A stretch of 39,652 nt of DNA, taken from contig LCOP01000001.1 of NCBI GenBank assembly GCA_000996605.1, positions 1-39,652 on the forward strand, written 5' to 3'. This DNA comes from Parcubacteria group bacterium GW2011_GWA1_47_8. GTDB taxonomy: Bacteria > Patescibacteriota > Minisyncoccia > Phycocordibacterales > UBA1550. The notes below the pieces were generated by a model. The model worked only from the letters and a program-made list of their open reading frames with translations, was not told where the DNA came from and did no database searches. A program made the translations under genes and the position numbers. Below are positions 11,427-25,117 of the stretch, piece by piece; position 1 is the stretch's first letter, and every line of letters begins with the position of its first letter.

Positions 11427-11500
11427 GCAGTCGTAGCTTAGCTGGTTAAAGCACCACCTTGTCACGGTGGGGACCGTGGGTTCAAATCCCATCGACTGCG
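11427..11500 (+). tRNA. tRNA-Asp(GTC)
   Basis: Cloverleaf: acceptor GCAGTCG/CGACTGC, anticodon arm CCACC-TTGTCAC-GGTGG, TTCAAAT T-loop; CCA not encoded. Confidence 0.96.
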
Positions 11501-11543
11501 CAATGCAAAACACCCCCGGAAATTCCGGGGGTGTTTTGCATTG
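11501..11543. terminator. Perfect long hairpin, likely bidirectional terminator
   Basis: caatgcaaaacacccccgga...tccgggggtgttttgcattg. Confidence 0.8.
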
Positions 11544-11619
11544 CATTGAAAAAAATGCGCAAATAGTGTATCGTGTCGGGGTGCTGGAAAAGTTTGAGGT
11601 TAAAGATATTAAGTCGTTA

Positions 11620-11687
11620 TAGCTGTTTTGGTAAGTTTACCGCATCGTCACGCCGTGCTTATTGTAGCTGTTTTGGTAGGCTTACCG
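11620..11687. repeat. 23-bp imperfect direct repeat (2 copies, 45-bp period) upstream of tRNA-Thr
   Basis: tagctgttttggtaagtttaccg (11620-11642) and tagctgttttggtaggcttaccg (11665-11687). Confidence 0.7.
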
Positions 11688-11735
11688 GGTTACCACGCAG
11701 TTTATACAGAGCGAATATAGGGAAAGATTCACCTC

Positions 11736-11808
11736 GCCGTTGTAGCTCAGTTGGTAGAGCACGTTCTTGGTAAGAACGAGGTCTCCGGTTCAATCCCGGA
11801 CAACGGCT
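11736..11808 (+). tRNA. tRNA-Thr(GGT)
   Basis: Acceptor GCCGTTG/CAACGGC, anticodon arm CGTTC-TTGGTAA-GAACG, TTCAATC T-loop. Confidence 0.96.
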
Positions 11809-11836
11809 CACGCAAGTTTTTTGTAAGATTAATTAT

Positions 11837-11912
11837 GCCACCTTAGCTCAGTTGGTAGAGCATCTCACTCGTAACGAGAAGGTCCGCAGTTCGATTCTGC
11901 GAGGTGGCTCCA
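11837..11912 (+). tRNA. tRNA-Thr(CGT), CCA encoded
   Basis: Acceptor GCCACCT/AGGTGGC, anticodon arm TCTCA-CTCGTAA-CGAGA (A31-C39 mismatch), TTCGATT T-loop. Confidence 0.94.
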
Positions 11913-23932: not shown

Positions 23933-24163
23933 ACAAAAACACCAACCGCAGTGGTTGGTGTTAGTGCATAAGAAAAGGAGGCAGAGATACTTAACGAATG
24001 CAACAACAGCAACCGATTTGGTTGTATTGTTACCTTCGTCAAAGACCCCTTGATCAGAATTTAAAACTTCTGTCCGGCAAACTCCCTCGACTCATGAACG
24101 TGATAGACGTTCATCCGCGTATCTCAACGCGCATAAGGCAATACTTTATGTTTTCAATGTACT
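23933..24163 (-). ncRNA. Candidate structured leader/ncRNA upstream of the methylase-terminase-recombinase operon
   Basis: Hairpins at 24132-24150, 24116-24131, 24094-24114 and 24055-24072, a long stem at 23983-24050 whose G-U pairs favour the minus strand, and a terminator-like hairpin at 23938-23962. Candidate promoter TTGCAA (24197-24192) / TAAACT (24175-24170). Confidence 0.55.
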
Positions 24164-24287
24164 ACATACAGTTTAGTACGCAGGGGGAAAATTGCAATAG
24201 ACTCTTAGGATCGTTGTCTACAGCTGTAGACAACCGAGCTACACAAATCTCCAAAAGTAAGCTGGAATGGAGCTGTAGCAATTTTTT

Positions 24288-24296
24288 TGCTATAAT
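24288..24296 (+). promoter_or_regulatory. Extended -10 promoter
   Basis: Perfect TGnTATAAT (tgctataat). Confidence 0.7.
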
Positions 24297-24318
24297 TTAT
24301 TCACAGCTGAATATCAGT

Positions 24319-24510
24319 CGACCTAACCCCTTTGGAATCCCCAAAGGATATGGTCGCAAAGCCCGCTAGAGATCAAAGGACTCCCAGTCAGAGTCACTCT
24401 AGCGGGTCATATCGGGAAACCGGTATGGGTATGGCCGAAAGGTTGTATCGCAATGGCTGGGAGCCTTTTGATTATCTGAAGGTTTCCGTCGTTCAAAAAC
24501 CCGCTAGAGA
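24319..24510 (+). ncRNA. Candidate structured RNA / switch in the 5' leader of the nuclease gene
   Basis: A 19-bp helix (24372-24390/24454-24472) encloses two GAAA-tetraloop hairpins (24408-24427, 24428-24449). CTCTAGCGGGT (24397-24407) is complementary to both 24361-24371 and 24499-24509. Confidence 0.7.
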
Positions 24511-24514
24511 ACAT

Positions 24515-25117
24515 ATGTATAAAAGAATTCCCGTGAGTAAGCTCACGGGCACTGAACAATTTAAGAATGTAGGTTCCAAGAAATTCTCCGTGCAGGAGTT
24601 TTGGAGTTATGGATTTTCCAACCTCAACTCAAATGTCCTGCGAGGAGCACTCGCAGAATTTATCGTGGAGAACGCACTTCGGGGGAGTGAGCAAATAGAT
24701 GTTCGCAATCCATGGGGCGACTCAGACGTTATCGCGCCAGATGGAAAAAAGATTGAGGTGAAGTGTTGCTCGTATATTCAGGATTGGGATCAGAATGATT
24801 TTTCAAAAATCCTCTGGAGCGGGCTCAAAGCCAAGACCCTCTATTGGTCTTCAGCAGTTAGTGATTTCCCGAGAAGTCCTGCCGATTATAAATCGGATAT
24901 TTATGTACTCGCGCTTTTCAAACACCAAGACCACGCCACGCTCGATATCCTTGATATGAACCAGTGGTGTTTTTACGTACTTTCAAAAGACCGAATTAAA
25001 GAGTTATCCAAAAATGGGAATAGTATCTCGCTCATTCGCCTAGAAAAATTTGATATTACCCCAGTCGGCTTCACTGAAATCTCCAAAACGATAGCCGACA
25101 TTCCAGCTCTAAATTGA
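24515..25117 (+). CDS. Restriction-endonuclease-like PD-(D/E)XK protein
   Basis: RGALAEFIV...DSDV...IEVK motif. Start moved to ATG 24515 because the upstream in-frame extension is the structured leader. Confidence 0.7.
   Translation: MYKRIPVSKLTGTEQFKNVGSKKFSVQEFWSYGFSNLNSNVLRGALAEFIVENALRGSEQIDVRNPWGDSDVIAPDGKKIEVKCCSYIQDWDQNDFSKILWSGLKAKTLYWSSAVSDFPRSPADYKSDIYVLALFKHQDHATLDILDMNQWCFYVLSKDRIKELSKNGNSISLIRLEKFDITPVGFTEISKTIADIPALN

Follow-up and report, generated by a model that had tools for sequence, protein, structure and literature searches.

LOOT, an orphan RNA family, as a candidate bistable leader of mobile cargo operons in Patescibacteria

Although structured RNAs upstream of bacterial genes are readily drawn from sequence, what such an RNA does for the gene behind it is a separate question, and it is raised sharply by one locus of Parcubacteria group bacterium GW2011_GWA1_47_8, a member of the Patescibacteriota. 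The stretch analysed here, hereafter the window, comprises all 39,652 nucleotides of positions 1 to 39,652 of contig LCOP01000001.1 (GenBank assembly GCA_000996605.1), and the locus in question lies immediately upstream of a gene for a putative nuclease. A preliminary description of this DNA, made from its letters, had noticed a leader with GAAA-capped hairpins, a long helix and a strand with two mutually exclusive partners, and had considered a translational switch, an RNA antitoxin or cofactor of the nuclease, and a self-multimerising RNA. We found that the RNA is a member of the published orphan family LOOT, which previously had no explained role. We propose, with a probability of roughly 0.6, that LOOT acts here in cis as a bistable leader with its own extended -10 promoter, at the head of an operon of nuclease and defence genes.

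The covariance model of LOOT (RF03000; Rfam release 15) matched positions 24320-24449 of the forward strand with 76.9 bits (gathering score 46.4, E = 6.2e-13) over its full length, that is, model positions 1-121 of 121, and no other Rfam family was found at E <= 1 in 24000-24800. The stretch has the P1 hairpin with its conserved internal loop, a long variable P2 and two adjacent hairpins, of which the first is capped by GAAA. The structured RNA of the preliminary description was thereby confirmed, and its membership in a known family, which had gone unrecognised, was added. LOOT derives from the motif collection of Weinberg et al. 2017 and is named in passages of the Rfam 14 and Rfam 15 papers: a figure legend of the former (PMC7779021) calls it a "metagenomic-based RNA", and a passage of the latter (PMC11701678) reports that 2 covarying pairs were added to it. 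In the part of the CaCoFold paper by Rivas that covers LOOT (PMC7657543), the family is given about 43 pairs, six helices and 28 "cross-covariations". The Rfam entry types LOOT as "Gene; sRNA" and gives no function. LOOT is not among the subjects treated in the main text of Weinberg 2017 (PMC5737381); the supplement of that paper may describe it. A literature search on LOOT or RF03000 returned nothing beyond the Rfam papers and PMC7657543, and a search combining the candidate phyla radiation (CPR) with structured RNAs or riboswitches gave nothing relevant among the matches listed.

Within and beyond the Rfam match, two sets of competing strands can be laid out along the leader (Table 1). The first set is formed by R1, R1' and R2: R1' is complementary to R1 over 11 pairs, one of them G.U, and to R2 over 11 Watson-Crick pairs. 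The second set is formed by S2a, S2b and S2c: S2b can pair with S2a to give the long-range helix S2 (18 of 19 pairs, with one A.C at 24380/24464), which encloses the hairpins P3 and P4, or with S2c to give a local hairpin. In the Rfam consensus, outer P2 consists of 24362-71 with 24397-24406, and S2a is drawn as a small local hairpin. S2b, S2c and R2 are not in that model; since it stops after P4, the second GAAA hairpin (window 24449), the 19-bp helix and the third repeat lie outside the family as described. The locus contains three occurrences of the 10-mer CCCGCTAGAG or its complement; the remainder of the 840-kb genome has only two, with about 1.6 expected by chance. On re-reading of the sequence, all feature coordinates of the preliminary description held. 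Its claim that the structure works on one strand agrees both with the many conserved G.U pairs (for example, U.G in 56 of 58 relatives at one S2 pair) and with the predicted folds: the + strand reached -85.9 kcal/mol (z = -5.75; 0 of 200 shuffles as good), far better than the - strand with -68.5 kcal/mol (z = -2.42; 4 of 200 shuffles as good).

The conservation of these helices was evaluated in alignment A1, a structure-blind MAFFT alignment of 58 loci of relatives (-20 to +45), from which the three weakest or truncated matches (L059-L061) had been dropped. For the 19 pairs of S2, 89.8% of cells were paired in the outer 8 and 88.6% in the inner 11, with changes on both sides at 15 of the 19; one pair, as an example, is C-G in 26 loci, G-C in 16 and A-U in 14. 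None of 500 shuffles reached the values observed for the whole structure, and when the pair partners were slid by 1-3 columns, 36-51% of cells were paired, compared with the 85.4% observed. Measured against these shuffled and slid controls, the long helix that had been drawn from a single sequence covaries across 58 relatives. Its single mismatch is itself conserved (unpaired in 48 of 58), and the S2 duplex has a mean of -24 kcal/mol over the 72 loci introduced below. At the outer end of S2, an A-run and a U-run change jointly to non-U sequences in one subclass, and this covariation indicates a helix, not merely a fixed terminator tail. The local hairpin of the Rfam model was kept less well than S2 (65-73% paired). 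P3 was paired in 96.3% of cells, with both-side changes at 8 of 8 pairs; outer P2, hypervariable and scrambled in the MAFFT alignment, was only 68% paired there, and a script applied to single-sequence folds found an outer P2 stem of 9-14 bp in 58 of 58 loci.

Across the family, conservation is highest at CCUAA/AUGG in P1 and at GAAA in the P3 loop. Together these letters resemble the GAAA tetraloop and 11-nt receptor of the P4-P6 type, whose canonical receptor motif is given in a passage of PMC2615604 as CCUAAG / UAUGG. The resemblance ends at the canonical closing G.U, in place of which LOOT has A/C or C/U combinations that, as read by eye, change together. A contact between the P1 loop and the P3 GAAA tetraloop may therefore brace one of the states of the RNA.

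The third copy of the hypervariable word, R2, was sought in 72 loci, namely, the 58 relatives and 14 nuclease-linked loci (L071, a duplicate of L070, was dropped). In 40 of the 72 loci, R1 recurs exactly over at least 8 nt at a distance of 25-125 nt past the Rfam end, compared with 0.33% of 4860 cross-locus controls, for which pairs with no 6-mer in common were used. A first scan, in which G.U was allowed and related R words remained in the control, gave at least 9 nt in 31 of 58 loci versus 10.7% of controls; it was noisy and has been superseded. R2 always lay on the same strand as LOOT, and 17 different R2 words were counted in the 72-locus table. In 38 of the 40 loci with R2, an ATG followed 1-13 nt after it; of the two exceptions, L005 has its ATG just upstream of R2, and in L055 the start was read by eye as GTG within R2. 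Among nuclease-encoding loci, 16 of 19 have LOOT upstream on the same strand (one of the remaining three has no upstream DNA), and in 12 of the 15 LOOT-nuclease loci analysed R2 ends 2-5 nt before the conserved ATGTATAAA. Before this same nuclease gene, R1, R1' and R2 change together, through the window word and five others (six words), and the window word CCCGCTAGAG precedes unrelated genes in other loci. On these comparisons, R2 belongs to LOOT and not to the downstream gene.

That the same LOOT or R word stands before different genes, and the same gene after different LOOTs, with the junction just past R2, could also be read at the level of DNA, with R1, R1' and R2 as recombination or cassette-exchange sites of a serine recombinase, or as operators. 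Of the 11 loci with a serine recombinase gene, 9 indeed have it directly divergent from LOOT. We give this explanation hardly any credence: the structure is specific to one strand and contains conserved G.U pairs, GAAA loops and a loop resembling a receptor, and most LOOT loci have no recombinase in the available flanking sequence. Furthermore, we know of no serine-recombinase att sites that consist of three 10-mers in direct-inverted-direct order.

Table 1. Features of the LOOT locus and the first gene behind it (window coordinates)
Feature	Position	Strand	Remarks
Promoter region	24276-24296	+	palindrome overlapping extended -10 TGCTATAAT (24288-24296)
Conserved motif ACAGCTGAATA	24303-24313	+	6 nt past the -10; family consensus ACAAYTGAATA
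P1 hairpin	24320-24355	+	Rfam alignment; extra pair 24319/24356 possible; pairs 82-92% paired
P1 internal loop	CCUAA 24322-26 / AUGG 24350-53	+	columns invariant or at least 90% conserved in alignment A1
R1 GCCCGCTAGAG	24361-24371	+	5' strand of hypervariable outer P2 helix; Rfam P2
S2a	24372-24390	+	5' strand of long-range helix S2
Inner P2 of Rfam (local hairpin)	24379-83 with 24391-95	+	alternative to S2a in S2
R1' CTCTAGCGGGT	24397-24407	+	able to pair with R1 or R2
P3 hairpin	24408-24427	+	GAAA loop 24416-19 conserved in at least 90% of sequences
P4 hairpin	24428-24449	+	GAAA 24437-40 here, loop variable in relatives; end of Rfam model
S2b	24454-24472	+	3' strand of S2, outside Rfam model
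S2c	~24475-24493	+	alternative S2b partner; hairpin 24452-24493 in minimum-free-energy fold
R2 ACCCGCTAGAG	24499-24509	+	copy of R1; ends 5 nt before ATG 24515
First operon gene, 200-aa PD-(D/E)XK-like nuclease (putative)	24515-25117	+	invariant residues, weak fold matches

In the mechanism that we propose, a 5' leader of about 212 nt would be transcribed from its own extended -10 promoter and would adopt one of two states. In state 1, which corresponds to the Rfam fold and is taken as ON, R1 would be paired with R1', S2a would form its local hairpin and S2b would be paired with S2c, and R2 and the start codon, which is preceded by no Shine-Dalgarno sequence, would be single-stranded. In state 2, taken as OFF, S2a and S2b would form the 19-bp helix, R1:R1' could not persist, and the freed R1' would pair with R2, burying positions -16 to -6 relative to the AUG. 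R1 joins S2a without a linker, and the linker from S2a to R1' is 6 nt in the window and 6-10 nt in the few relatives read; given these connections and a helix of 17-19 bp, about 50 A long, full S2 and R1:R1' would be incompatible in one molecule. R1' could still reach R2, because 27 nt separate S2b from R2. We infer from this geometry that S2 sterically excludes R1:R1', and masking of R2 would be expected to block ribosome loading, in keeping with the assignment of the two states as ON and OFF. The three-way covariation, which is unusually strong, supports the reading of LOOT as a switch, and this reading goes beyond what the Rfam model covers. The translational switch of the preliminary description has thus gained comparative support from the joint changes of R1, R1' and R2 and from the position of R2 at the start codon.

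Covariation is seen for both R1:R1' and S2, two helices that do not seem to fit sterically into a single molecule. The conflict would also be relieved if S2 formed within a molecule and R1 and R1' paired between molecules, to give locus-specific dimers or rings of an RNA tied to packaging. Such an RNA would be comparable to phi29 pRNA, which LOOT resembles in being structured, 120-170 nt long and near packaging genes, with complementary segments able to pair between molecules; terminase-like genes are found near many LOOT loci (TerS-like in 22 and TerL in 5 of 83). The self-multimerising RNA suggested earlier nevertheless received no support and seems very improbable, since LOOT was the only Rfam family matched at E <= 1 in 24000-24800, with no covariance model of pRNA among the matches. 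The complementary segments of LOOT are, unlike those of pRNA, tied to a start codon, a link that has no place in packaging, and most LOOT loci have no terminase in the available flanking sequence.

An alternative reading, named beforehand in the preliminary description as one that would speak against a structured RNA, is that 24332-24514 is translated as an N-terminal extension of the nuclease, within a TTG-initiated open reading frame (ORF) of 261 aa. The frame is open from 24332 in the window and in 1 of 15 homologous loci (L067). In-frame stops lie between LOOT and the ATG in 14 of the 15, and conservation of the protein begins with M1-Y2-K3 of ATG 24515, so that such an extension can be regarded as excluded. 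A covariance model for RNA also fits the stretch, in which the variation is compensatory, and Pfam gave no match for the protein in its 261-aa or its 200-aa form.

The predicted energies place the competing structures close together. In constrained folds of the window, the forced R1:R1' pairing gave -86.1, the forced R1':R2 pairing -85.9 and S2, with nested pairs only, -79.9 kcal/mol; the isolated duplexes were -20.3 (R1:R1'), -20.0 (R2:R1'), -25.9 (S2a:S2b) and -21.4 kcal/mol (S2b:S2c). Across loci, the R1:R1' state minus the R1':R2 state averaged -2.9 +/- 2.8 kcal/mol (n=40), and the P2 state minus the S2 state -0.6 +/- 4.1 kcal/mol (n=72), with 50 of 72 loci within 4 kcal/mol. A hairpin of S2b with the following spacer was better than with shuffled spacers (z < -2) in 28 of the 40 loci with R2 and in 17 of the 32 others. 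Those others are partly consistent with the same switch. In 5 of them, and in 0 of the 40 loci with R2, a terminator-like hairpin lies between S2b and the gene; in L018 and L040, as judged by eye, the 5' arm of the terminator overlaps S2c, so that formation of S2 would free the terminator arm. In several further loci without R2, the start codon lies, again by eye, about 10-25 nt after S2b.

These loci also bear on the possibility that LOOT is a stand-alone small RNA, processed or terminated and possibly acting in trans, in which R1' would serve as a seed specific to each locus, with R1 masking it and R2 on the adjacent mRNA as its target. The type assigned by Rfam, the occurrence of as many as 3 LOOT copies, with distinct R words, in one genome, the loci lacking R2 in cis and the five terminators between LOOT and gene are all compatible with such a role. 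We consider it unlikely: where R2 exists, it shares the strand of LOOT without exception, follows 25-125 nt later and sits by the start codon of the adjacent gene, and no terminator-like hairpin intervenes in any of the 40 loci. In addition, the two further matches of the R word in the window genome are about the number expected by chance, and the covariation of the A-run and U-run at the end of S2 means that there is no fixed terminator tail.

The extended -10 that was reported previously is present in the window, and a -10 is conserved across relatives: a TANNNT hexamer lies 4-9 nt upstream of the ACAAYTGAATA motif in 58 of 64 loci, with the TG extension in 44 of the 64. The motif itself was found, with at most 3 substitutions, in 64 of 72 loci, and its window copy ACAGCTGAATA is probably the 5' end of the transcript. 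A sigma-70 scan did not list the window promoter, because that scan requires a -35 match. An inverted repeat, TAGCAA (24276-81) ttttt TTGCTA (24287-92), overlaps the -10 with its 3' arm; palindromes with arms of at least 6 bp occupy the same place in 30 of 64 loci (L002-L080) versus 5.6% of shuffles, and the arm sequence is locus-specific. This palindrome could be an element-specific operator or an upstream terminator.

A promoter of its own and a place in front of a cargo operon exceeding 14 kb would suit a constitutive structural leader that does not switch, for example one that protects the 5' end, enhances translation or mediates processive antitermination like the HK022 put or EAR RNAs. 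The compactness of the fold, in which a tetraloop-receptor contact is likely, the diversity of the cargo and the downstream terminators of some loci are in line with this view. We regard it as distinctly unlikely, since it accounts neither for the retention of a third copy of the hypervariable strand beside the start codon, in at least 17 different words, nor for the two alternative partners of S2b.

LOOT was matched in 43 of 151 relatives, of which 40 exceeded the cut-off and single genomes had as many as 3 copies, and in 30 of 151 genomes sampled evenly across the phylum, most of the genomes listed being 0.6-1.3 Mb in size; the window genome (840 kb, 53 contigs, 91% complete) has one LOOT, and the 14 control genomes have 0. 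The P3 pattern matched 4 IMG/VR contigs, and LOOT scored above the cut-off in 3 of the 4. One of these contigs, of the viral class (L062, 11108-13546), carries LOOT with the R word of the window together with a serine recombinase, TerL and TerS, and its type III restriction enzyme is 87% identical to that of the window over 813 aa. Records of nuclease homologues are mostly labelled Nomurabacteria, Parcubacteria, Taylorbacteria, Paceibacterota, Saccharibacteria, Levyibacteriota, Kerfeldbacteria and Patescibacteria, and one (L083) Gammaproteobacteria. The nuclease is 60-81% identical across L066-L084, which come from records of mostly different Patescibacteria/CPR groups, and it nearly always follows a LOOT (16 of 19); this pattern suggests that the LOOT-nuclease cassette has spread horizontally.

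A same-strand ORF follows LOOT in 58 of 58 loci, and these ORFs fall into 37 BLAST clusters. Of 20 cargo representatives scanned, 12 had a Pfam match (Imm_superinfect, T5orf172, N6_N4_Mtase, HNH, SNase, UDG, MethyltransfD12, DUF5655, Trypsin_2, FemAB, DUF2726 and a Zn ribbon) and 8 had none. With cargo this diverse, LOOT is not a nuclease-specific antitoxin, and the suggestion that it is an RNA antitoxin or cofactor of the nuclease finds no support, given the at least 37 unrelated gene clusters that it precedes in 58 loci. Among 83 other loci searched, homologues of the element backbone lie beside LOOT in many: the recombinase in 11, TerS-like proteins in 22, TerL in 5 and methylases in 15-23. 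Diverse cargo on a shared backbone points to LOOT as the leader of a variable cargo slot in a family of integrative phage-like elements.

Several points weigh against the interpretation of LOOT as a bistable leader. R2 is missing in 32 of 72 loci, and the translational module is therefore not universal. Where it is present, R2 is usually 1-3 nt shorter than R1, so that nested models favour the ON state on average. The energy balances given above are descriptive figures without a null model, and the exclusion of R1:R1' by S2 is argued from geometry, not calculated; a pseudoknot in which P2 persists beside a partly melted S2 is conceivable. Locus L046 has a U run directly behind its S2b:S2c hairpin, an arrangement that would invert the switch at that locus. 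The Rfam typing as a small RNA stands on the same side. One RNA library (X19, contigs only) piles up on the conserved core of LOOT, at 24290-24482, and three DNA libraries pile up likewise; because contigs show neither strand nor ends and all four libraries look alike, these data give no verdict on transcription. Finally, the downstream genes have no common function, which argues against a classical metabolite riboswitch and offers no clue to the signal.

The comparison with riboswitches is nevertheless instructive with regard to architecture. As in riboswitch expression platforms, a structured and conserved 5' domain of LOOT is joined to strands with two exclusive partners each (S2b and R1'), one of them over the start region, and the output modules vary by locus (R2, a terminator, or a start directly behind S2b). 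Mutually exclusive structures that couple to a start site or a terminator, as in a riboswitch, are thus predicted by computation; the shared pathway or function that the genes behind a riboswitch have is lacking among the 37 clusters of the 58 loci. We know of no described riboswitch class in which, as in LOOT, a hypervariable switching word is kept in three copies. Translation of hok-type toxin mRNAs is controlled by fold-back and alternative long-range pairings, and in both systems a potentially harmful gene would be gated by competing long-range pairings in its own mRNA. LOOT differs from them in having no antisense RNA gene and no small hydrophobic toxin, and in that it also precedes clearly non-toxic genes. 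As a broader and tentative idea, possible rather than probable, LOOT might be the sensor domain of an unrecognised class of cis-regulatory RNA that is confined to mobile elements and prophages of Patescibacteria and braced by a tetraloop-receptor contact. With at least three interchangeable outputs (a start-masking address word, a terminator and occlusion by S2), such an RNA would control cargo for defence, superinfection exclusion and nucleases according to a cue other than a pathway metabolite, e.g., a protein encoded by the element, the infection state or an ion level.

The gene directly behind the leader encodes a protein of 200 aa whose identity as a nuclease is plausible, not proven, because its fold matches are weak. 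E52, D69, D71 and E81-x-K83 are invariant in 16 nuclease sequences. An AlphaFold2 model (mean pLDDT 72.6) gave its best Foldseek matches with NhoI, the Eco15I N-terminal domain, PvuII and I-Ssp6803I, all of the PD-(D/E)XK fold and all weak (E from 2e-3, TM 0.45/0.55); searches of the protein against Pfam, PHROG, PADLOC and PDB sequences gave no match. Within the coding sequence, a perfect 8-bp hairpin, CCCGTGAG/CTCACGGG, lies at 24530-24549 over codons 6-12, 13 nt beyond the ATG. Folding predicts a stable hairpin (-9.6 to -14.5 kcal/mol) at the same coding site in 13 of 17 nuclease homologues, where the third positions of a Pro and a Thr codon change jointly (C-G, A-U, U-A, G-C). The coding hairpin is an RNA structure that is maintained at synonymous sites.

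The nuclease gene is followed by genes for an HTH_17 protein, a DrmD-like SNF2 helicase (1e-214), a type III methyltransferase (2e-149) and a type III restriction enzyme (4e-130). Upstream, on the opposite strand, lie two DNA methylases, a TerS-like HTH protein, a large terminase (PHROG 38, 5e-80) and a large serine recombinase, which adjoin tRNA-Gln. Positions 17485-39652 form an integrated phage-like element beside tRNA-Gln, whose defence cargo also includes four ORFs without a family match; no convincing direct repeat marking the ends of the element was found in 17000-39652, and the contig ends with the window. The G+C content falls from about 0.47 to about 0.40 after 25 kb. An ORF of 123 aa at 23998-24369, which overlaps the promoter and P1, is probably not a gene, because its only tblastn matches are pieces of 15-46 aa at or beside LOOT in other loci. 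Three tRNA genes (Asp-GTC, Thr-GGT and Thr-CGT) form a cluster at 11427-11912, in the part of the window that is chromosomal.

Since its appearance in Rfam release 14, LOOT has had neither host nor function nor mechanism assigned to it. It can now be given a host range, namely, groundwater bacteria with tiny genomes, about a fifth to a quarter of the genomes sampled, with records of relatives named Patescibacteria/CPR, and a genomic role as the leader of variable cargo on elements with a serine recombinase, a terminase and methylases. The mechanism proposed for it is testable, since each strand has two partners, and a hypervariable strand kept in three matching copies amounts to an unusually clean natural compensatory-mutation experiment. 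Because the hosts are mostly uncultured, it is of value that a portable RNA element that would control mobile defence genes could be studied in vitro. LOOT would be among the few regulatory mechanisms known for the mostly uncultured Patescibacteria/CPR.

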